Source of the DNA: Escherichia phage A7_1
Sequence record: OP795442
Strand: one strand, 5' to 3'
Length of the DNA: 64,000 bases
This document shows positions 39,276 through 49,061 of the stretch, piece by piece. Below the pieces are notes generated by a model. The model was not told the origin of the DNA, searched no databases, and was given only the letters and a program-made list of their open reading frames with translations. The position numbers and the translations under genes were made by a program. Positions within the stretch are counted from its first letter, which is position 1, and every line of letters begins with the position of its first letter.

Positions 39276-39854
39276 TTATTCATTTCCTCGATATTTTTGA
39301 ATCGCGATCGAAGTCCTTGGTTCAGCCAGGCCAGTTCCGTATGCATACCATTTACCAGTGAGTGTTTTTCGAGCACCGTAGGACCCAATCTCCATATCGT
39401 CACAATAAACATCGTAACCGATCGGAGTCTTAATTAAAAAGAGTACGTCACGAGGAATCCCTAAGAGGGTAAACATCGATATGGCATCTTTTGCGATCTC
39501 GTGAGAAATCTTCTCTGCATTCTTTTTACTACTGGCACTTCTAAACAGTTCCATCTTTAAGAAGATATTGAAATGAATATCATCAAGAACCATCTCATCA
39601 CGAAAGCATGGGGTCACAGCCATCCAACTGCCATCTTCCAACTTCCCCTCTTTGTCGAGTTGAAGGAATGATTGCTCTGCGGAAGCTACTGCGTATTTCC
39701 CGTTCTGGACAATGCGAAGATCAGTAACATCTTCGGGGCATGTATGGTCCATAGCATCATCATCCACATAGCTTGGGACAACCTTATCATTGAAACCTTT
39801 ACATTTCCACCAACTATGAGCATCAATAAACAATGTGAAGTCAATGTTTGACAT
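39276..39854 (-). CDS. hypothetical protein with class-II aaRS motif-2-like TPCFRDE
   Basis: ATG 39854; function not assigned. Confidence 0.5.
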   Translation of the reverse strand: MSNIDFTLFIDAHSWWKCKGFNDKVVPSYVDDDAMDHTCPEDVTDLRIVQNGKYAVASAEQSFLQLDKEGKLEDGSWMAVTPCFRDEMVLDDIHFNIFLKMELFRSASSKKNAEKISHEIAKDAISMFTLLGIPRDVLFLIKTPIGYDVYCDDMEIGSYGARKTLTGKWYAYGTGLAEPRTSIAIQKYRGNE

Positions 39855-39855
39855 T

Positions 39856-40359
39856 TTAGCCTCGCTTACCATTCTGGAATGCACGTTTAGTGATTTTTGA
39901 CATAACCATCAGGTCTTCCAGTGAAGTGCTCGGATGATGCTTATTCAAGTAGGCTTCCACAGCACCAACCAGATCAGAAAGCTCTACCAACTCCATGATC
40001 TTGCATTTTTGTTTGGCTGCATCCTTAAGTTCATCAAGTTCTTCTTGAATCTTAGTGATCTCTCCAAGTTCTCCACGAGGGAAAGTATCCAGATGATAAC
40101 CTGGTTTTTGTTCTTCGATCTCTTCATGTCCGACAACACGAAATTTTCCGGCAGCGAAACGCCAAACACCTTCAAAATACACAATGTAATGTTCCGACTC
40201 TACAATGAAGATAGTGTCGAAATTTTTAAATTTGAAAAATCCTTCAACAAGATTATCTTCTGTACTGAAACTTCCTAAGAAGTTGAGTTCTTGCTCCGTA
40301 TGAAATTCGATAACCATATTTTCGTTCTGGAGTTTCGTCAGCAATTTTAAAATTTTCAT
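39856..40359 (-). CDS. hypothetical protein (weak MazG-like C-terminal helix)
   Basis: ATG 40359 after AAGAGGAGAG; track N-terminal extension rejected. Confidence 0.5.
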   Translation of the reverse strand: MKILKLLTKLQNENMVIEFHTEQELNFLGSFSTEDNLVEGFFKFKNFDTIFIVESEHYIVYFEGVWRFAAGKFRVVGHEEIEEQKPGYHLDTFPRGELGEITKIQEELDELKDAAKQKCKIMELVELSDLVGAVEAYLNKHHPSTSLEDLMVMSKITKRAFQNGKRG

Positions 40360-40370
40360 TTTCTCTCCTC

Positions 40371-40859
40371 TTATGGGCAACACCGTGGAGATCTTCCACA
40401 GAAGAATTGCCAATTGGTTTCTGAATCTTTGTGGTTTACAAAACCTATCCTTCCGCACCCTTTCCCACTACAAACCGCTTCACGAGGATGATAGTCTATA
40501 CTGCAAGAGTGGGGATGATCAAATGCCTCCTGTATTTCAACACAGAGTCTACTTAACCAAGCGAACATTTTTGGCATAGAAGCTTCAAGGAGTTTAAGTT
40601 CATCGACCGTAGGTTTGTCTTTCTCCATGAAGAAGTCATTTATCTCGGAAAACAAAATCACGTTTTGAACTATACCGCTGCTTACCTTGTAAGAGAACTC
40701 CTCAGTAAGTCTCACAGTAACTTCCTCTATCAATTCTTTTTCATTATCTTGATCTTTTGCTAATCTTTCTTCAATCCATCGGATAACGAAGAATCTTTCT
40801 CTCTGAACATCCATGTTCAAAGTATTGATTATTTTTTCATAGATTAGGTTTCCTTCCAT
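40371..40859 (-). CDS. hypothetical protein with C-terminal Cys cluster (PTVDELKLLEASMP motif)
   Basis: 162 aa ORF. Confidence 0.5.
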   Translation of the reverse strand: MEGNLIYEKIINTLNMDVQRERFFVIRWIEERLAKDQDNEKELIEEVTVRLTEEFSYKVSSGIVQNVILFSEINDFFMEKDKPTVDELKLLEASMPKMFAWLSRLCVEIQEAFDHPHSCSIDYHPREAVCSGKGCGRIGFVNHKDSETNWQFFCGRSPRCCP

Positions 40860-41971
40860 ACCTTGTCTTGTGCCTCCAGGATAAGTTTTTCAACAATCTT
40901 CAGATCTGTTTTCTTTGGTAAGCTCGATTGCTTATAAAGAACATCTGTGATCATTTTATCTTTTTCTTCAGCCCACTCAACAATTTCTTCATAGCGGTAT
41001 TCACCATTTCGGATTGCGAGGAGTTCTTCAGCGTCTGGTCGATTCACTAAAACTTTACCTTCTGTGAGGATTTCTTCACCCATCCGAAGAAGCCGGACCA
41101 AATGCATAGCATGTTTAGTGTCGTAACCGAACTTCTCTTCCAGTTCATGACGCTTCTCGTTACGATTCTTAACCCACTCCCAGTAGTTGTGGTGTTTCTC
41201 CTTGGCCCATTTATGATCGTCAGCACAATACTTAACAATCATCAGAGTCTTGCCTCTTTTAACTTCCTCTGGGATTTCTTCATAGTCTAGCTTACGGATA
41301 GAACCATCTTTATTAAACATTGGTTGAACATCTTCACTACGATCTTCTACAACACCGTAAATGTTACCACCGTAAGGAACCAAAGTACAGAAGCCTTCCA
41401 TGTTTTTAAATTTACGAACAAAGTCTTCGTACTTCAACTCACCTTCTCCGAGATAGCTCTGCACCAGACGGAAATAGTCAAATTGAGTTGGTGGCTCTTT
41501 TGGTTGCGGATTATTAATGTGTTTGTTGTGACCCTTGATCCGCTTTAACTGAGACATTGCATAACCACTGAAGCGAAATGCAACTTCACGAGACAGTAAG
41601 GAGTAGAAATGTTCTTTCATCTCTTTCCAAGCTTCGTGCTCGTACAATGTGGCTTTCGGATCAGTAAAACCCAGTTCAATGATATTTGGGTTCATCTTCG
41701 AAAACAGTTGAAGGAAAGTTCCCAATTCGTAGATCTTGGCATCCTCTTCACCAGGGATGTTTAATTCAGTAACCTCTTTGAATGGGGTACGAACCACATT
41801 TGGGGTTGCAACAAAAACCCCACGGATATCAATATCACTACCTTCGTTATTCGTACCATACGCATGAGATCCTGCCAGACTCAACATCAGTACCTTCGCT
41901 ACGTCTGGATGCTTTTCCATCTTCTCTACGATACTTTTTACCTTTCCAGCACTCACAACTGAATTTTCCAT
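40844..41971 (-). CDS. Pol-beta superfamily nucleotidyltransferase
   Basis: 375 aa; G-S-x9-D-I-D-I motif (LAGSHAYGTNNEGSDIDIRGVFV). Confidence 0.6.
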   Translation of the reverse strand: MENSVVSAGKVKSIVEKMEKHPDVAKVLMLSLAGSHAYGTNNEGSDIDIRGVFVATPNVVRTPFKEVTELNIPGEEDAKIYELGTFLQLFSKMNPNIIELGFTDPKATLYEHEAWKEMKEHFYSLLSREVAFRFSGYAMSQLKRIKGHNKHINNPQPKEPPTQFDYFRLVQSYLGEGELKYEDFVRKFKNMEGFCTLVPYGGNIYGVVEDRSEDVQPMFNKDGSIRKLDYEEIPEEVKRGKTLMIVKYCADDHKWAKEKHHNYWEWVKNRNEKRHELEEKFGYDTKHAMHLVRLLRMGEEILTEGKVLVNRPDAEELLAIRNGEYRYEEIVEWAEEKDKMITDVLYKQSSLPKKTDLKIVEKLILEAQDKVWKET

Positions 41972-42061
41972 TTATCCTCCAATCATGTAAGTCACACAAG
42001 CCAACCCAGTTGGCCTGTTTAATCTTTATAAAGTTTACGCAGCTTGTGCAATCTTTTTTAT

Positions 42062-42457
42062 TTATAGGCATTTCACACCATAAATGATCATCAACACAAC
42101 AAGTGTCAACGTATAAAAGAAGCTCCCGTAAAGTCCATAACTGGTAATTTTAAGCTTTTTCTTAAAGCACATCATTGTACTATAAATTACACCAGTCCAG
42201 TGAATCACTAAAATCGCGGTGGCAATATCTGAAACATTACCCGCCCAAAGCATCAGAGAGTATGAGAGGTACATTGCAAAACCTGATAGCAAGAATGTAA
42301 ACAAATAACCAATTACACTTTTCTTTTTCTGATCTACGATTTTATTTTTCATGGTATCGATATTCAGATTGTAGTAGGCAACCACCACCATCTGGATAAT
42401 CAACCCCAGGATAAAGAAAGAGATCAGTGTAACGTATTCAAAAATTGGTGCAGTCAT
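42062..42457 (-). CDS. hypothetical membrane protein (about 4 helices)
   Basis: 131 aa, hydrophobic throughout. Confidence 0.55.
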   Translation of the reverse strand: MTAPIFEYVTLISFFILGLIIQMVVVAYYNLNIDTMKNKIVDQKKKSVIGYLFTFLLSGFAMYLSYSLMLWAGNVSDIATAILVIHWTGVIYSTMMCFKKKLKITSYGLYGSFFYTLTLVVLMIIYGVKCL

Positions 42458-42855
42458 TATAATTTCTCCTCAATAATTTCAGAAATGAGATTCGAGATCT
42501 CGAAAGTTTCTAACTCTTCGACGTGTGACAAGCGCCGGAGGCGCTCGATAACAAAGTCTTTCTTCACAAACACATCCGACAGATGCTCAATGTCCTGCTT
42601 ACCACGCATTCCGCTAACCAACTGCTTGTATCGGATGAGTTCAATATACTCTTCTTTGGACATTACTGTCAAGCGTTCATCTGCACAAATATGCAAAAAT
42701 ACTTGCTTGCTGTCCCAGTCGAACCCATTGTGCACTGCTTCTACTTCACGGTGAGGTGTCCCGCCAATTGTTACATGACCAACCTCAACGGGGATAGATA
42801 CCTGATCATCAGGTCGGCACTGCTGCAACTCCTCAATCAATTCAGATACTTTCAT
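42457..42855 (-). CDS. hypothetical protein
   Basis: 132 aa ORF. Confidence 0.55.
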   Translation of the reverse strand: MKVSELIEELQQCRPDDQVSIPVEVGHVTIGGTPHREVEAVHNGFDWDSKQVFLHICADERLTVMSKEEYIELIRYKQLVSGMRGKQDIEHLSDVFVKKDFVIERLRRLSHVEELETFEISNLISEIIEEKL

Positions 42856-42857
42856 AG

Positions 42858-43313
42858 TTACCCCTGTTTAAGCTTAAAAGATTTAAAGGCTTCGATAAAG
42901 TCCATTTCTTTTTGCGTGTATTTGTGGTCAATTGTATCAGCGAAAAGAGGGCAACGACCATCAACCAACTTCACATCCCACAGATGTTGAGGGAGAATAA
43001 ATGCAATGGCTGTAAGTGCACCATTCAAAGAATCATTCTCCTCGCAGAAAAATGCGTAAGGAATCTTCTCTATGTTTGGAGCTAAAAATCCTTCTGCAAA
43101 ATTAAGCATCTTAGATTGATAGCCTCCGTTCAACAAGATCATTGTTTGGTCTTTGCTTTGCCACTGATCTACAAGGTTGTATCTGTCATCATATCGATCG
43201 GCATAGGCAAAGCCATAATGACCTACAAGGTTTGCTGCTGCATGTGCTGCTTGGATACCTGCTTGGATTCCCATCATGTAGCTGTTTACCAATACGTACA
43301 TCCGAGTTTTCAA
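42858..43313 (-). CDS. hypothetical protein, possibly peptidyl-tRNA hydrolase (Pth2)-like
   Basis: 151 aa; N-terminal VLVNSYMMGIQAGIQAAHAA resembles Pth2 core; low-confidence function. Confidence 0.5.
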   Translation of the reverse strand: MKTRMYVLVNSYMMGIQAGIQAAHAAANLVGHYGFAYADRYDDRYNLVDQWQSKDQTMILLNGGYQSKMLNFAEGFLAPNIEKIPYAFFCEENDSLNGALTAIAFILPQHLWDVKLVDGRCPLFADTIDHKYTQKEMDFIEAFKSFKLKQG

Positions 43314-43630
43314 TTCTTACCTCCGAAAATTCTTTTTGCAAATTTTTCATTACCTAACGTCATGTTGTAGAAAACTATAATTGAATAGACAATCCACGCA
43401 AGGACATAAAATAAAATCAAGAAAGGCCAGCCCACAAACCAAAACACTGTCATTATTAACCAGCCCGTCATAAGGAGTTTATAATTAACATTCCCGTGAT
43501 TTAAAGGGTCAAGTAAGTTACTGTTCTCTGGCAGGGTGATACGAAACCCACCTTGACGAAGCTTGATCAAAAAGAACCAAGCAGCAGAACTTATAATGCA
43601 ACATAAAATATATATCAGTAATCCTGTCAT
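43310..43630 (-). CDS. hypothetical membrane protein, tandem paralogue A
   Basis: 106 aa; shares FLIKLRQ.GF..P and helix layout with 43627..43956. Confidence 0.55.
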   Translation of the reverse strand: MTGLLIYILCCIISSAAWFFLIKLRQGGFRITLPENSNLLDPLNHGNVNYKLLMTGWLIMTVFWFVGWPFLILFYVLAWIVYSIIVFYNMTLGNEKFAKRIFGGKN

Positions 43631-43956
43631 TTTTTAACTCCGAAGATCTTAGATAGTAATTTATCATTCCCGATAGTTACACCACAAAAACTTTTTACTC
43701 CGTATACTAGATACGACCCGATTGTAACACAGATAATGATCGGATAAACAAGATACCAAAAGAATGTTGCAAGTATCCACCCTGCCATCACCATACGTAA
43801 ATTTACATTTTCGTTATTCAGTGGCTCCAGGATATAAATATCCTCACAATCTTTTGGGAAGGGGATGTTAAAACCCTTCTGTCGTAATTTGATCAGTAAG
43901 AACCAAAGCGGGCAACTGATAAAACAACCGATCAAATAACCTTCAACCATTTTCAC
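43627..43956 (-). CDS. hypothetical membrane protein, tandem paralogue B
   Basis: 109 aa; paralogue of 43310..43630. Confidence 0.55.
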   Translation of the reverse strand: MKMVEGYLIGCFISCPLWFLLIKLRQKGFNIPFPKDCEDIYILEPLNNENVNLRMVMAGWILATFFWYLVYPIIICVTIGSYLVYGVKSFCGVTIGNDKLLSKIFGVKK

Positions 43957-45193
43957 TCTCCTTCAATTTGTCAAGATATTGTGTAACGTATCTTACTTTT
44001 ACATTTCGGATTCTATTCTTGATCTCTTCTGGACGTCCAGCAAATCTTTCAGAGATCTCTTTACTTTCTTTTGAGATTGCAACGCTGTTTTGAACAATCC
44101 CCGCCAGTGCTGAGAATAATACCAAAGGTTGAGTGTAGCTGTCAAACATTTTTTCAGGACCCCGACCACGAGCATCACAGATGCAAGCATCAATAAATTC
44201 AGAGAGGAATGCTTGGTCCTTTTCACCACGTAAGGCTACTAACAAGTCATAAACTTTCTTTGGCTTCATTTCTTTGATACGGTGAAGTCGTGTATGATGC
44301 TCAGTTACAGCTAAAGCCAACTTCTTCCAATTATTGGGGACACCAAAGCGATCACAAACTTGTTCAGTTAACTTGATACCATGTTCTTCGTGACCGTGCA
44401 GTTTACCCGTTACCCAATAAATACATTTACCTAAGTCGTGACACAGAACTGCCCACTTCACAGCTTCACTTGCACGAGTCGCCTGGGCATAATCCATGCA
44501 AAGTAAAGTGTGAACAAATGCATCACCTTCAGGATGGTGCTCCTTGGGTTGAACAACATCGTATAAATCCACAAGCTCAGGAAATTCCCCCAGTTGAGTC
44601 AACATACGGATCATTACCGAAGGTTTATTCATTTCTGACTGATCACTAAAGCATTTCTTAATCTCTGCAAATTTACGCTCTTTTGGTAATGCACTTAAAT
44701 CAACATCCTTGCACATTCCCCAAGTGTCAGGATCAATTGTAAACTCGCCTCCGTATCTGGCATGTAATCTGGCTAATCGATATACACGTAAAGGGTCTTC
44801 GATAAATGCCTTAATAGATACACAACGTAACCGACGAAGTTCAATATCAAGTGCACCACCGCAAGGGTCAATAATTTCACCCGTAGAAATATCCTTAGCG
44901 ATCGCATTAATGGTCAAATCTCTTCGCATCAGGTCTTGTTCGATTGTAACGTCTGGAGAGAACACAACTTCGAAGTCGTGATAACCAGGACCTGTTGATC
45001 TTTCTGTCCGAGCAAGAGCATACTCTTCCTTTGTCTCGGGGTGAAGGTACACAGGGAAAGCTGCACCAACCTTAGTAAATCCCTTCTCAATCATTTCTTC
45101 ATGGGTCGCTCCAACTACAACGTAGTCACGATCCTTGCTTTCAACACTCATTAGTTCATCGCGAACTGCACCACCTACCAAGTAAACTTTCAT
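43943..45193 (-). CDS. cca: CCA-adding tRNA nucleotidyltransferase with HD domain
   Basis: MKVYLVGGAVRD..DRD..YALARTER..RRDLTINA..DPLRV..CHDLGK closely follows E. coli Cca; ATG 45193 after AAGGA. Confidence 0.85.
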   Translation of the reverse strand: MKVYLVGGAVRDELMSVESKDRDYVVVGATHEEMIEKGFTKVGAAFPVYLHPETKEEYALARTERSTGPGYHDFEVVFSPDVTIEQDLMRRDLTINAIAKDISTGEIIDPCGGALDIELRRLRCVSIKAFIEDPLRVYRLARLHARYGGEFTIDPDTWGMCKDVDLSALPKERKFAEIKKCFSDQSEMNKPSVMIRMLTQLGEFPELVDLYDVVQPKEHHPEGDAFVHTLLCMDYAQATRASEAVKWAVLCHDLGKCIYWVTGKLHGHEEHGIKLTEQVCDRFGVPNNWKKLALAVTEHHTRLHRIKEMKPKKVYDLLVALRGEKDQAFLSEFIDACICDARGRGPEKMFDSYTQPLVLFSALAGIVQNSVAISKESKEISERFAGRPEEIKNRIRNVKVRYVTQYLDKLKESENG

Positions 45194-45231: not shown

Positions 45232-45396
45232 TCATAGCCATCCCCTTTCTTTATACCCTTTTGTAAATCCTGATTCCCAATCTTGAAATTGCTCCGGCAT
45301 GGTGTTTGGATTATACGGGTTGTTTCTCTTGAACATCCCAAACTTGAATCCAGCGGCTCGGCCCTTCTCGTATGCTGAACTGCTTTTTCTTGTCAT
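45232..45396 (-). CDS. hypothetical small basic protein
   Basis: ATG 45396 after GAGGAG. Confidence 0.4.
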   Translation of the reverse strand: MTRKSSSAYEKGRAAGFKFGMFKRNNPYNPNTMPEQFQDWESGFTKGYKERGWL

Positions 45397-45722
45397 ACTC
45401 TTTCTCCTCTTAAATTTAAAGACCAATCTTTTATTTCTTCTTTCCAGTTTGTATTTCTCTTAATGTCTTGCTTTTGACCGCGAAGATAGTTAATGATCTC
45501 AAGCGGGTCTTGCTTAACAAAAGAAATATTGTCGATCGGGCACTCAACTAACTTAAGCATCCTTTCAAAACGATTATACTCATCTTCCGACTTTGGTGCA
45601 ACAGGAATAACATCATAATCTTCAAGATTATCGAGAGTTTCAAGAGTCACCTTCATCTCGTAGCCTTCTAATTTCTTTGTCTTAATACCAAATACTCTTC
45701 GAAAGTAAATGTAATATTTCAT
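45393..45722 (-). CDS. hypothetical protein
   Basis: 109 aa, SD AGGAGAA. Confidence 0.5.
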   Translation of the reverse strand: MKYYIYFRRVFGIKTKKLEGYEMKVTLETLDNLEDYDVIPVAPKSEDEYNRFERMLKLVECPIDNISFVKQDPLEIINYLRGQKQDIKRNTNWKEEIKDWSLNLRGERV

Positions 45723-45807: not shown

Positions 45808-46317
45808 TTAAGGGTGAATCCAGTAAAAAGGTTTTGTTAAACCAAGCTTACCTTTCGGGTCCCAAATGAAGTAGGCATACGCCGCACCATCTGTTTTCCC
45901 ATCCTCAGTAAAAGAGGGTCGCTTGGATAGAGTAACCAAATGATCAACAGGATATTCCTTCCAGAACTCCACACGTTTGGTACTCTCAAGGAAACCTAAA
46001 CGAAGCAGCATTATCACCACATCAGCATCCTTGTGAGCCTTCTCTACAAACTCTTGAGCTAAATTATAAGGTGGGTTAGTTAACACACAATCTACCTTAT
46101 TGTATTTAGTTGCAAGATAATCAACACCTTCTTGAATCTCTCCCCAAGCTGAACCAATTGGCATTTCATTATAAAAACGTCCAGAGGCTCTGCAAGGTTC
46201 CAGATAAGTCCAATCCTGACGGATTGGAACTAAATTCAAGAAAGCATCTACTGCCCATTTCGGAGTTTCATAGCGATCATTTTCACGGCGTTCTGCTTTA
46301 GGTTTCAATGCTGCCAC
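45808..46317 (-). CDS. DNA N6-adenine methyltransferase (small orphan MTase)
   Basis: RYETPKWAVDAF, motif I-like EPCRASGRF, motif IV DCVLTNPPY. Confidence 0.7.
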   Translation of the reverse strand: MAALKPKAERRENDRYETPKWAVDAFLNLVPIRQDWTYLEPCRASGRFYNEMPIGSAWGEIQEGVDYLATKYNKVDCVLTNPPYNLAQEFVEKAHKDADVVIMLLRLGFLESTKRVEFWKEYPVDHLVTLSKRPSFTEDGKTDGAAYAYFIWDPKGKLGLTKPFYWIHP

Positions 46318-46319
46318 TC

Positions 46320-47165
46320 TTATTTGCCCCCTTCTTTTGCCGCAGTGATGATCTGCTCAATCAATTCATCACGATAATAAACATACTGTTCAACACCGAA
46401 ACATTCTGCAATCTCGTCTAACTCTTCGAGGTTGTATTCGTCAAAGTCTCGCGGGTTAAGAGTGAAGATGTTGAATTTTTTGGCGTAGCCTTCGTCAAGG
46501 ACGATTTCAAATTCTCCTTCTCCGATTTCCTTCTCATCATCAACATTACTCGATTCGATTGGCTCTTCAACCTTAATCCCCCCTGTATTTTGTTGATCGG
46601 CTTCCATTTGCTTTTTAATTGCTTCATCTTCAGCGGTCAGACGGGCTTGCATCTGAGAGGAAGTAAAGTAAATTTCGCCAGCACGATCAAACAGTTCAAC
46701 GAGTTCATCTTCTGTCATAACACCCTTGTACAGATCGTAGTATTTCTCTTTGAACAGGTCTTTGTAGAAATCGCTACGTTTAAATACCAGTGCCGAGTCA
46801 CCGCCCATACTCATCTGAACGTTGTGGAACATATAATGAGAACCTGGACGACAAATTCGAACATGACCGGATAAGAAGATCATTGTTGCAGCACTTGCCA
46901 CTTCACCAATACCGTGTGTTACAACAGTCGCCTTTGTTTCAGAGATCGCTGTCATGTACATATCGGCGATATCACAATAACCACCACAAGAAGTAATGTA
47001 TAGATTTACAATATCACCTTCGGGCGCTGAACGAATCAGGTCAACAGCCTCGATATGTGCTTCAGGTGAATTGTGCAGGTCCGTAACATAAATACGCCAA
47101 TCGTTAGAAGTTACTGGAGACACCCAAATGTTTTTTGCCGGACCATTCATTACGATTTCTTCCAT
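46320..47165 (-). CDS. ClpP-like serine protease (S14) with acidic C-terminal extension
   Basis: ITSCGGYCD..VTHGIGEVASAATMIFLSG..GSHYMFH resembles ClpP catalytic core. Confidence 0.55.
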   Translation of the reverse strand: MEEIVMNGPAKNIWVSPVTSNDWRIYVTDLHNSPEAHIEAVDLIRSAPEGDIVNLYITSCGGYCDIADMYMTAISETKATVVTHGIGEVASAATMIFLSGHVRICRPGSHYMFHNVQMSMGGDSALVFKRSDFYKDLFKEKYYDLYKGVMTEDELVELFDRAGEIYFTSSQMQARLTAEDEAIKKQMEADQQNTGGIKVEEPIESSNVDDEKEIGEGEFEIVLDEGYAKKFNIFTLNPRDFDEYNLEELDEIAECFGVEQYVYYRDELIEQIITAAKEGGK

Positions 47166-47655: not shown

Positions 47656-47973
47656 TTAAATTCCGATTAAATATTTAAACTTCCCGTCGTTCTCTGCGAT
47701 CTTGTGGATTACATAGAACCAATTTTCAATTCCGTCTTCATCTTCCTCTTTCACACGATCACCAGTTTTCAACTCAACCTCGGAAACGTACTCCTTACTT
47801 TCAAGGAAATACTTCCACTGAACCATGTCTTTAAAATTACAGATTAGTTTATTTTTGCCATCAGTCGTCCAAAGGTCCTGATTGACCCACATACCAACAA
47901 CGAAATTCTTTTCTTTCTTAGGACGACCAAGTGCATAAGTGTTGTTTAACATCTTTGCTTTATCTAAGACCAC
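47656..47973 (-). CDS. hypothetical protein
   Basis: 105 aa ORF. Confidence 0.5.
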   Translation of the reverse strand: MVLDKAKMLNNTYALGRPKKEKNFVVGMWVNQDLWTTDGKNKLICNFKDMVQWKYFLESKEYVSEVELKTGDRVKEEDEDGIENWFYVIHKIAENDGKFKYLIGI

Positions 47974-48616
47974 GTTTTGACTCCAAGTTAACTAAGAAAC
48001 TCTCAAGCACTGCGATGTTGTCTTCTTTCCAAAGATTAAGTGTTCTTACACCATTCTTCTTTGCCAGATTGACTGCTGTTGCAGTGCCGCCTTTAGGATT
48101 ACCCGTCTTTGTTTCCTTTGCGTAGTATATCACAAATTTACTTTGCATCAAGTAGGCATTTGAAAGATTTTTACCAAAAATTTGGTGTACGTTTCTTTCG
48201 TGTAATTTCCTTGCCCCTTGACTCAACTTGTCCCATCCACCATGAACTTCCTTTATCCATTCCCATCGCATTTCTGTATGTTCTGGAAATTCTTTATCAA
48301 TCGTGTTCAGGGAGATATTATACAGATCTTTAAGTCCTTGTCCACCTTTAAAGTTGTCCCAAGGAACATATATCTCTGCAAGTTTGCTCGGTGATTGAGT
48401 CATATTGCAATCTTCATGAAACTTCTGCATACCTCTTTGGAAAGCTGCATCTGCACCATCTGCACCGCCAGATCGTAATGTATATCCGACCCTTGCTAAT
48501 CTCCAACCCGCATCTTCCATAATTTTTAATACTTCTTCAGGGGCCTCCCTTGAACCTATTCCTGTATAAGCTGGCACTTTAACCTCCTTCATCTTCAGTT
48601 GACCAGTACCCATTAA
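47960..48616 (-). CDS. DprA/Smf-like (SLOG superfamily) Rossmann-fold protein
   Basis: YTGIGSRE..GYTLRSGGADGADAAFQRG resembles DprA GxAxGxD core; start uncertain (track start overlaps nrdG by 113 nt). Confidence 0.45.
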   Translation of the reverse strand, partial: LMGTGQLKMKEVKVPAYTGIGSREAPEEVLKIMEDAGWRLARVGYTLRSGGADGADAAFQRGMQKFHEDCNMTQSPSKLAEIYVPWDNFKGGQGLKDLYNISLNTIDKEFPEHTEMRWEWIKEVHGGWDKLSQGARKLHERNVHQIFGKNLSNAYLMQSKFVIYYAKETKTGNPKGGTATAVNLAKKNGVRTLNLWKEDNIAVLESFLVNLESKRGLR

Positions 48617-49061
48617 CTTTTTTCCAAAGTCTTTGGTTATCTGATCCCCTGAATCTTTTAGTTGTAGGTTTGTTTTCATCATACTTGCCATCCATGATTA
48701 AGTCAACGTATTTCTTTATTTCCTCATCTAAGTCTTGAAAAAGATACCCTGTCCACACCATGATATCTTTACTCTCACCAAAGCACGACTTTACTTCCTT
48801 GATAATTCTTTTTACAACATCAATATTCTCATGGTCAAGAGGTTCTCCACCCATAATTGACAATCCACTGATAAAATTTCGAGAAAGATCTTTTTTCAAA
48901 CTCTCCATATCTTCATCTGTGAATTCTTTCCCATACCTATATGACCAAGCCTTTTGGTTAAAACAACCCTTACACTTATGACTGCATCCACTAACCCAGA
49001 GAGAGGTTCTTACCCCCTCTCCATTGATGAAGTCTGTGCTTTCATATCCGCAAATGTTCAA
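48579..49061 (-). CDS. nrdG: anaerobic ribonucleotide reductase activating protein (radical SAM)
   Basis: C-x3-C-x2-C (GCSHKCKGC); adjacent to nrdD. Confidence 0.8.
   Translation of the reverse strand: MNICGYESTDFINGEGVRTSLWVSGCSHKCKGCFNQKAWSYRYGKEFTDEDMESLKKDLSRNFISGLSIMGGEPLDHENIDVVKRIIKEVKSCFGESKDIMVWTGYLFQDLDEEIKKYVDLIMDGKYDENKPTTKRFRGSDNQRLWKKVNGYWSTEDEGG

Follow-up and report, generated by a model that had tools for sequence, protein, structure and literature searches.

Many bacterial toxins and abortive-infection systems hit tRNA, among them anticodon nucleases, acceptor-stem nucleases and nucleotidyltransferase toxins, and others pyrophosphorylate or acetylate the tRNA 3' end or the amino acid attached to it. 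To our knowledge, the only phage answer to such toxins that is well understood is the heal-and-seal repair of phage T4, in which Pnkp and Rnl1 restore tRNA-Lys cleaved by PrrC. In this study, we analysed a 64,000-nucleotide stretch of Escherichia phage A7_1 DNA (OP795442), referred to below as the window, in which a cluster at positions 39,276 to 45,193 encodes a CCA-adding enzyme with an HD domain, a protein related to peptidyl-tRNA hydrolase 2 (Pth2), a nucleotidyltransferase of the RlaP family, and a class II aminoacyl-tRNA synthetase (aaRS) core which resembles seryl-tRNA synthetase (SerRS) and has a MazG/HisE-like partner. We consider it fairly probable that these genes form a ligase-less system which would keep tRNA 3' ends usable during infection and would likely counter host toxins, with the first three as its core triad and the SerRS-like/MazG-like proteins as a second enzyme. 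Such a system would have in common with T4 a phage-encoded tRNA repair that beats a host suicide nuclease, as well as RlaP itself, which T4 encodes as NrdC.11 (PMC12776372). T4, however, uses a kinase-phosphatase and a ligase to heal and seal the anticodon loop, whereas the A7_1 module has neither and is built on the 3' acceptor end.

The activity of RlaP has been described for two Pseudomonas proteins, which add one or two nucleoside monophosphates to the 3'-OH of RNA, not DNA, in vitro, favour a mimic of cleaved tRNA, and show little specificity for the nucleoside triphosphate; it was proposed that RlaP replaces nucleotides cut out by 'smart' ribotoxins such as RloC before ligation (preprint, December 2025; PMC12776372). 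In jumbo phages, RlaP, CCA-adding enzyme, Thg1, and PTH2 are listed as RNA-repair and ribosome-rescue counter-measures to host RNases (Iyer et al. 2021, Viruses 13:63, section 3.4.9; PMC7824862), and the general theme is therefore already known. The families are the same as those discussed here, but that part of the survey deals with their presence or absence in jumbo phages and with RlaP mirroring RNA ligases, whereas A7_1 is a phage of 140 kb with no detected ligase. Compared with the portion of the survey considered here, what seems to be new is a contiguous unit of CCA enzyme, Pth2-like protein, and RlaP, with Thg1 as an alternative partner and no ligase detected, the remodelled active-site loop of a Pth2-fold family which scores under the Pfam threshold, and a near-obligate SerRS-like/MazG-like pair, of which we found no mention in that portion.

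In the window, the three genes of the triad are interrupted by lineage-specific small genes (two tandem paralogues, a 132-amino-acid (aa) protein, and a 131-aa membrane protein). In Rheinheimera phage Barba19A (84.6 kb, Barbavirus), they are consecutive as gp063 (CCA enzyme), gp062 (Pth2-like), and gp061 (RlaP), and Vibrio phage 496E54-1 has the same three in the same order, again without interruption. In Vibrio phage Va1, the CCA and Pth2-like genes overlap, and an RNA ligase lies 4 kb upstream; in jumbo phage Xoo-sp13, RlaP adjoins the Pth2-like gene; and in marine phage contigs, the Pth2-like gene is directly followed by Thg1, a 3'-5' polymerase that repairs tRNA 5' ends. Around 73 Pth2-like loci, which form 47 clusters at 60% identity, all same-strand open reading frames up to 3 kb away were clustered without bias. 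The commonest neighbours were the CCA enzyme (22 loci, 10 clusters), RlaP (14 loci, 7 clusters), and Thg1 (10 loci, 7 clusters), ahead of PhoH, ClpP, SpoVR, ThyA, and DNA ligase. All three top-ranking families are tRNA-end nucleotidyltransferases. Of the 61 IMG/VR Pth2-like loci, 27 have a member of one of these families, or an RNA ligase, within 6 kb, and the link of the Pth2-like gene to tRNA-end enzymes is strong, though not universal. An earlier note on this DNA had joined the four genes into one module for tRNA repair or recycling. That proposal holds for the CCA enzyme, the Pth2-like protein, and RlaP, but not for the four as one unit, as the aaRS-like gene belongs to a separate pair described below; near the Pth2-like gene in the marine contigs, an aaRS-like gene was looked for and was absent. 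Burroughs and Aravind reportedly defined RlaP neighbourhoods in 2016 and may already have covered some of these arrangements. As a separate observation, PhoH and ClpP recur beside the Pth2-like gene across several lineages, and a conserved block of marine phage contigs (L006, L007, and L011) has peptide deformylase, PrkA, DUF444, SpoVR, and PhoH upstream of it, and thymidylate synthase, DHFR, and Acb1 downstream.

Judged by its sequence, the first member of the triad, which the earlier note had recognized as an E. coli-type CCA-adding enzyme with an HD domain, is a class II enzyme of the E. coli Cca type, with predicted roles in CCA addition and as a phosphatase or cyclic phosphodiesterase. 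Pfam identifies the PolyA_pol head (PF01743, 3e-19) and an HD domain (2.2e-8, residues 228-316), and the NCBIfam model PRK10885 ('multifunctional CCA addition/repair protein') matches at E=1e-114, with residues 1-408 colinear with model positions 1-405 of 409. The translation contains GGAVRD...DRD, RRDLTINA (motif B), EDPLR (motif D), and CHDLGK (HD). Thus, full-length colinearity, all head-domain motifs, and the HD motif are shared with E. coli Cca. Since the PRK10885 score of 383.5 bits is under the equivalog cut-off of 451, the phage enzyme is a homologue rather than a certified equivalog, and a further difference from E. coli Cca is that the tRNAs of the phage which encodes it do not depend on CCA synthesis.

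The last point follows from the relatives of A7_1. Escherichia phages A73 and W70 show 96.3% identity across the full 5.9-kb cluster region, and UPEC06, A5-4, and LTH01 show 95%; all are myoviruses of 137-145 kb in the subfamily Vequintavirinae, to which the window belongs as well, and one source gives A5-4 the species label Septuagintavirus sv54. In GenBank, their cluster genes are labelled 'multifunctional CCA addition/repair protein', 'nucleotidyltransferase', and 'putative seryl-tRNA synthetase', while the Pth2-like gene is labelled 'hypothetical' or 'hydrolase'. ARAGORN found zero tRNA genes and an Rfam scan zero RNA families in the window. However, the absence of tRNA genes stressed by the earlier note is true of the window only: A73 has five (Met, Tyr, Gly, Gln, and Pro) at 139.4-141.1 kb, which appear to lie outside the equivalent of the window (~60.8-124.8 kb of A73, by coordinate offset from the matched region). 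The terminal CCA is encoded in all five, and therefore the phage CCA enzyme is not needed for de novo CCA synthesis, which points to repair. A role in maturing CCA-less phage tRNAs was ruled out on the same ground. Also in A73, outside the window, a tRNA-like stretch is seen directly after tRNA-Tyr (L005, ~26390-26470), with the T-arm GGTTCGAATCC and ending in ...ACGGAAACCA; it was seen by eye only, has no ARAGORN call, and may be a degenerate or unusual sixth tRNA.

The Pth2-like protein has the Pth2 alpha/beta fold, a call that needed family profiles and structure prediction; PDB sequence searches with the single Pth2-like, aaRS-like, and nucleotidyltransferase sequences returned nothing useful. 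The protein scores 16.4 bits against Pfam PF01981 (E=0.011), under the gathering threshold of 23, and 13 of 26 homologues give weak matches to this family, the best at E=0.0012. Profile-profile alignment (hhalign) of the phage family with five solved Pth2 sequences from the PDB indicates that the helix-1 Q..HA motif (Q21, H24, and A25) and W51 are retained. By motif reading rather than alignment, an invariant acidic residue past strand 3 (E91; Asp in Pth2) and T101/P108 are apparently retained as well. Compared with archaeal and eukaryotic Pth2 (PF01981; 1wn2, 1xty, and 1q7s), the phage protein has only 14% sequence identity and ~40 extra C-terminal residues.

The 375-aa nucleotidyltransferase, which the earlier note had placed in the Pol-beta superfamily, belongs to RlaP. 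The Pfam RlaP model (PF10127, 'RNA repair pathway DNA polymerase beta family') matches with 69 bits against a cut-off of 23 (E=6.5e-19), within the N-terminal 131 residues only (model positions 9-140 of 249), and phrog_388 spans the entire protein (1.2e-79). The G[GS]...DxD nucleotidyltransferase core reads AGSHAYGTNNEGSDIDI in the translation. Like the Pseudomonas RlaPs and those of RtcB-RlaP-RtcA operons, the protein has the PF10127 domain and an N-terminal nucleotidyltransferase domain followed by a long C-terminal region, which forms a helical domain in the solved RlaP (PMC12776372), and it is predicted to add one or two nucleoside monophosphates to an RNA 3'-OH. In contrast to the Pseudomonas enzymes, for which this activity has been shown, it is a prediction for the phage subfamily, and the partners in the A7_1 cluster are a CCA enzyme and a Pth2-like protein instead of RtcB and RtcA.

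Drawing on the biochemistry of these families, we propose the following division of labour within the triad. The Pth2-fold protein would strip an acyl, aminoacyl, peptidyl, or related block from the terminal ribose to give a free 3' end, and the HD domain of the Cca-type enzyme would then clear 2',3'-cyclic or 3'/2' phosphates. Where trimming had passed the CCA into the discriminator or acceptor strand, RlaP would restore one or two nucleotides; alternatively, it would fill a broken loop to be sealed afterwards by host RtcB. Finally, the CCA enzyme, serving repair rather than primary maturation, would rebuild C74-C75-A76. Because its conserved partners are 3'-end enzymes and no ligase was found, RlaP is placed before the CCA enzyme at the acceptor 3' end, or made to lean on host RtcB. 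The MazG/HisE-like protein and the SerRS-like core would constitute a second, near-obligate two-protein enzyme, most likely making an aminoacyl-adenylate, probably seryl. The purpose of the whole would likely be to defend the phage against host toxins or abortive-infection nucleases whose targets are tRNA ends.

The SerRS-like protein, in which the earlier note had seen a sequence like motif 2 of class II aaRSs, has the class II catalytic fold with motifs 1, 2, and 3 and is closest to SerRS. It begins a few residues before motif 1, and 181-185 of its 192 residues align, all of them within the catalytic domain. It keeps the arginines of motifs 2 and 3 and two elements that are typical of SerRS, F-x-K-x-E and E..S..R, and the invariant E102 and T174 presumably match the serine-hydroxyl-binding residues in the active site of T. 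thermophilus SerRS. The fold, the three motifs, and the two elements are shared with both the SerRS catalytic domain and the SerRS-like amino acid:carrier-protein ligases (Bll0957, 3mey). The phage core is, however, far smaller (192 aa versus ~300 or more in the aligned chains), lacks the N-terminal coiled-coil tRNA-binding arm, and has a motif-2 loop shortened by six residues relative to 2dq3, and it scores only 19 bits against the serS equivalog TIGR00414 (cut-off 301.65). From these features we infer that it is an active adenylate-forming enzyme, probably for serine.

A further difference from SerRS and Bll0957 is that the phage core is nearly always paired or fused with a MazG/HisE-like domain, a partner missing from the list of the earlier note. 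Among 80 viral IMG/VR aaRS-like loci (51 clusters), 75 (48 clusters) have a MazG-like gene no further than 2.5 kb away on the same strand, on either side. It abuts the aaRS-like gene in every context examined (L012, L013, L014/15, L022, and L024), and fusions of the two were seen in three proteins (P0263, P0264, and L145). The domain, a helical stretch of ~85 aa with an EExxE...ExxD motif in which E24, E25, E28, E44, and D47 are invariant in 34 sequences, is probably an all-alpha NTP pyrophosphohydrolase. PRA-PH (HisE, PF01503) matches 31 of these 34 homologues, all weakly (best E=3.7e-4; 15.8 bits for the protein in the window, cut-off 21.3), and MazG matches two. PDB searches with a clean 34-sequence profile of the domain, and with a four-sequence profile distorted by long insertions, gave no match, so the assignment is based on the motif together with the consistent weak Pfam matches. 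Encoded next to the pair, the 162-aa protein with a C-terminal zinc ribbon is a third partner with a looser tie: in L014, a homologue comes after the aaRS-like gene, and the CGxSPRCCP ribbon is fused to the aaRS-like proteins P0111 and P0116. Literature searches on the aaRS-like/MazG pair found nothing relevant.

After the MazG-like gene, RlaP is the next commonest neighbour of the aaRS-like gene (9 loci, 6 clusters). In 25 of the 80 loci, some of them outside Vequintavirinae, an RNA-repair gene (CCA enzyme, RlaP, Pth2-like, Thg1, or RNA ligase) is found no more than 5 kb away, and the tie of the pair to tRNA-repair genes is moderate. Accordingly, the triad and the pair are best described as two conserved sub-modules that are loosely tied. 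Two further observations concern the pair. In Burkholderia-associated phage-like contigs (L022, 6001-7547; L024, 6001-7550), the gene after it encodes a CTP_transf_like (PF01467) nucleotidyltransferase, with an AAA ATPase, DUF1643, and an RCC1-repeat protein close by. In four proteins of 270-280 aa (P0188, P0200, P0232, and P0235; P0200 and P0232 on contigs of 570 kb and 259 kb), the MazG/HisE-like domain is fused to another N-terminal domain of ~180 aa (WFGLGF.QLKL...HFWHP...HDHRY...FHR), and therefore it partners more than one enzyme.

The cluster is predicted to be transcribed as one unit of 6.5 kb, which spans ~45.78 to 39.23 kb of the minus strand and packs twelve genes between two terminator-like hairpins, with junctions of -34 to +90 nt. 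All four open reading frames named in the earlier note lie where it had placed them. In order of transcription, the features are as follows.

45803-45780, minus strand: terminator-like hairpin (consensus scan), directly before the promoter-like site
45775-45748, minus strand: promoter-like site, TTGACT-16-TATAAT, 11/12 (consensus scan), the best in the region; predicted start of the unit
45393..45722, minus strand: 109-aa protein (phrog_12008), first gene of the unit
45232..45426, minus strand: 64-aa protein (phrog_26347)
43943..45193, minus strand: CCA-adding enzyme with C-terminal HD domain (Pfam, PHROGs, NCBIfam, motifs); another upstream ATG at 45241
43627-43956 and 43310-43630, minus strand: two tandem paralogous proteins of ~107 aa (phrog_17692), predicted from hydrophobic sequence to be membrane proteins
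42858..43313, minus strand: Pth2-like protein with Pth2 fold (profile comparison, motif reading)
42457..42855, minus strand: 132-aa protein (phrog_12566), position conserved in Vequintavirinae-like loci
42062..42457, minus strand: 131-aa membrane protein (phrog_12739)
41847..42071, minus strand: 74-aa open reading frame with CxxC...C..H..C, overlapping the RlaP start; status uncertain (conservation)
40844..41971, minus strand: RlaP-family Pol-beta nucleotidyltransferase, 375 aa (Pfam, phrog_388)
40371..40859, minus strand: 162-aa protein with C-terminal zinc ribbon, ...CGRSPRCCP (sequence, homologues)
39856..40362, minus strand: 168-aa protein, probable MazG/HisE-like domain in the C-terminal ~85 aa (motif, weak Pfam matches)
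39276..39854, minus strand: class II aaRS catalytic core, SerRS-like, 192 aa (profiles, motifs)
39255-39230, minus strand: terminator-like hairpin, 11 pairs and a T-run (consensus scan), 20 nt past the aaRS-like stop codon; predicted end of the unit

Homologues of the tandem phrog_17692 proteins were detected solely in the closest relatives of the window, and these proteins probably stand outside the repair chemistry. Small genes fill this position in other Vequintavirinae-like loci (L009 and L018) too, and are absent where the triad is contiguous. From its start in the 90-nt gap that precedes RlaP, the 74-aa open reading frame runs ~125 nt into the RlaP gene. It has no annotation in A73 or UPEC06. 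Acinetobacter phage ABPH49 (46% identity) and a CR3-like contig (L025) both conserve its N-terminal ~50 residues, and a small zinc-finger gene may have been missed here. Beyond the unit, every gene of the window between ~26 and 64 kb is on the minus strand, and at ~24000-26000 a flip in the sign of the GC skew coincides with the change of gene orientation from plus to minus, which marks a divergent junction of gene blocks. About 3 kb upstream of the cluster, past a DNA methyltransferase (45808-46317) and a ClpP-like protease (46320-47165), the minus strand encodes a 243-aa DprA-like/SLOG-type protein (47960-48691; phrog_768, 1.2e-63; weak Pfam matches to DNA_processg_A and LDcluster4). Three successive paralogous RCC1-repeat-like proteins of 234, 415, and 410 aa (phrog_4219, 'regulator of chromosome condensation') are encoded at 29364-32953, also on the minus strand.

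Several observations weigh against a system for the rescue of tRNA 3' ends as outlined above. In 34 of the 61 IMG/VR Pth2-like loci, no tRNA-end enzyme was detected within 6 kb, and in 55 of the 80 aaRS-like loci there is no RNA-repair gene near the pair. Part of the synteny (ClpP, methyltransferase, CCA enzyme, and others) reflects shared ancestry inside Vequintavirinae, and the promoter and terminators of the unit are consensus-scan matches only. Furthermore, the phage Pth2-like family lacks the strand-1 R-x-D and the lysines of the GKGK loop (R7, D9, K14, and K16), which are invariant in all five solved Pth2 sequences. In the hhalign register, the second GKGK lysine aligns with Q17, where the family has Q, H, or A, never K; in S. 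solfataricus Pth2, we take Lys18 and Asp86 to be the catalytic residues. Because the GKGK lysines are replaced, peptidyl-tRNA hydrolase activity cannot be assumed. Of the possible Pth2-like peptidyl-tRNA hydrolase suggested by the earlier note, it is thus the fold that stands: the protein fails on a defining feature of the Pth2 enzyme family, its substrate may differ, and it may hydrolyse something other than peptidyl-tRNA. As for RlaP, the low nucleotide specificity seen in vitro (PMC12776372) makes faithful restoration of the discriminator base questionable. Although RlaP is defined by its association with RNA ligases, neither RNA ligase, polynucleotide kinase, nor Thg1 was found in the window or A73 by a non-exhaustive search, which comprised PHROGs on window open reading frames of at least 180 aa and on ten large unannotated ones of A73, and phmmer with phage Rnl (two RNA ligases) and Thg1 sequences.

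One competing explanation concerns the pair, for which a role unrelated to tRNA is about as likely as a tRNA role. The SerRS-like and MazG-like proteins could be a small-molecule or nucleotide enzyme that is merely co-located with the triad in Vequintavirinae, a possibility to which we give a little less than an even chance. Such an enzyme might produce a metabolite derived from seryl-adenylate, synthesize and hydrolyse dinucleoside polyphosphates, or aminoacylate a non-tRNA acceptor as the SerRS-like amino acid:carrier-protein ligases do. The position of RlaP as the commonest neighbour after the partner, and the occurrence of repair genes near the pair in lineages outside Vequintavirinae, speak against this, and the few annotated neighbourhoods that were looked through showed no obvious carrier-protein gene, although no search was aimed at one. 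At the opposite end stands the bolder idea that the pair is an undescribed two-component enzyme of large phages which acts directly on the tRNA acceptor end and, together with the triad, would complete a ligase-free pathway of 3'-end rescue. We regard this as unlikely, if attractive. In one version, the pair would recognize A76 and remove or replace a 3' modification installed by a toxin, for example the pyrophosphate of the toxSAS/CapRel type; in the other, it would re-aminoacylate repaired tRNA without the usual identity elements.

The main rival explanation leaves the proposed biochemistry unchanged and differs in purpose only. The enzymes may be translational housekeeping that serves the heavy translation load of the phage, with no host toxin involved: the CCA enzyme would mend ends nibbled by host exonucleases during processing of the five phage tRNAs, and the Pth2-like protein would supplement limiting host Pth on dropped-off peptidyl-tRNA. 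Five tRNA genes in the closest complete genome, and the location of the cluster among genes for nucleotide metabolism and replication (ClpP, PhoH, and ribonucleotide reductases), are consistent with this, and E. coli pth(rap) mutants block lambda growth through the build-up of peptidyl-tRNA. However, all five phage tRNAs already encode CCA, E. coli owns cca and pth, and RlaP and Thg1 mend ends with missing nucleotides, a kind of damage that seldom arises in routine turnover. We judge housekeeping to be perhaps one possibility in four.

It is very improbable that the cluster is coincidental, i.e. a set of unrelated early or middle genes that are neighbours in one lineage and have no functional coupling. 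Phage early regions are indeed crowded with genes that have nothing to do with one another, the cluster is broken up by lineage-specific membrane and unknown proteins, and about half of the Pth2-like loci have no partners; but strict contiguity of the triad in unrelated phages, a neighbour ranking led by three families of tRNA-end nucleotidyltransferases, and gene fusions of the aaRS-like pair would all have to be accidents. Least credible of all, and rejected, is the suggestion of the earlier note that the nucleotidyltransferase could be a signalling CD-NTase or a minimal, antitoxin-like MNT enzyme, since a marginal MntA_antitoxin match (E=0.00096, residues 26-49 only, in the generic G[GS]...DxD region) and a weak PDB match to an Mnt-family antitoxin (E=0.65 across 35 residues) are set against the RlaP and end-to-end phrog_388 matches, the lack of any CD-NTase match in PADLOC (best E=0.018, to an unrelated candidate), and a length far beyond the ~106-140 aa of MNT proteins, with a long C-terminal region that fits the two-domain build of RlaP, i.e. 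an N-terminal nucleotidyltransferase and a C-terminal helical domain.

If the proposal of a 3'-end rescue system is true, the ligase-free unit of CCA enzyme, Pth2-like protein, and RlaP, with Thg1 as an alternative, would represent a second, testable type of phage tRNA repair, and would show what phage RlaPs and a family of Pth2 fold actually do. A73, W70, UPEC06, and their relatives grow on E. coli K-12, which makes genetics easy. Apart from this, a natural class II synthetase core of 190 aa, which has all catalytic motifs, is coupled to a pyrophosphatase-like domain, and occurs in hundreds of large phages, matters both for the evolution of synthetases and for the discovery of new aminoacyl-transfer chemistry.

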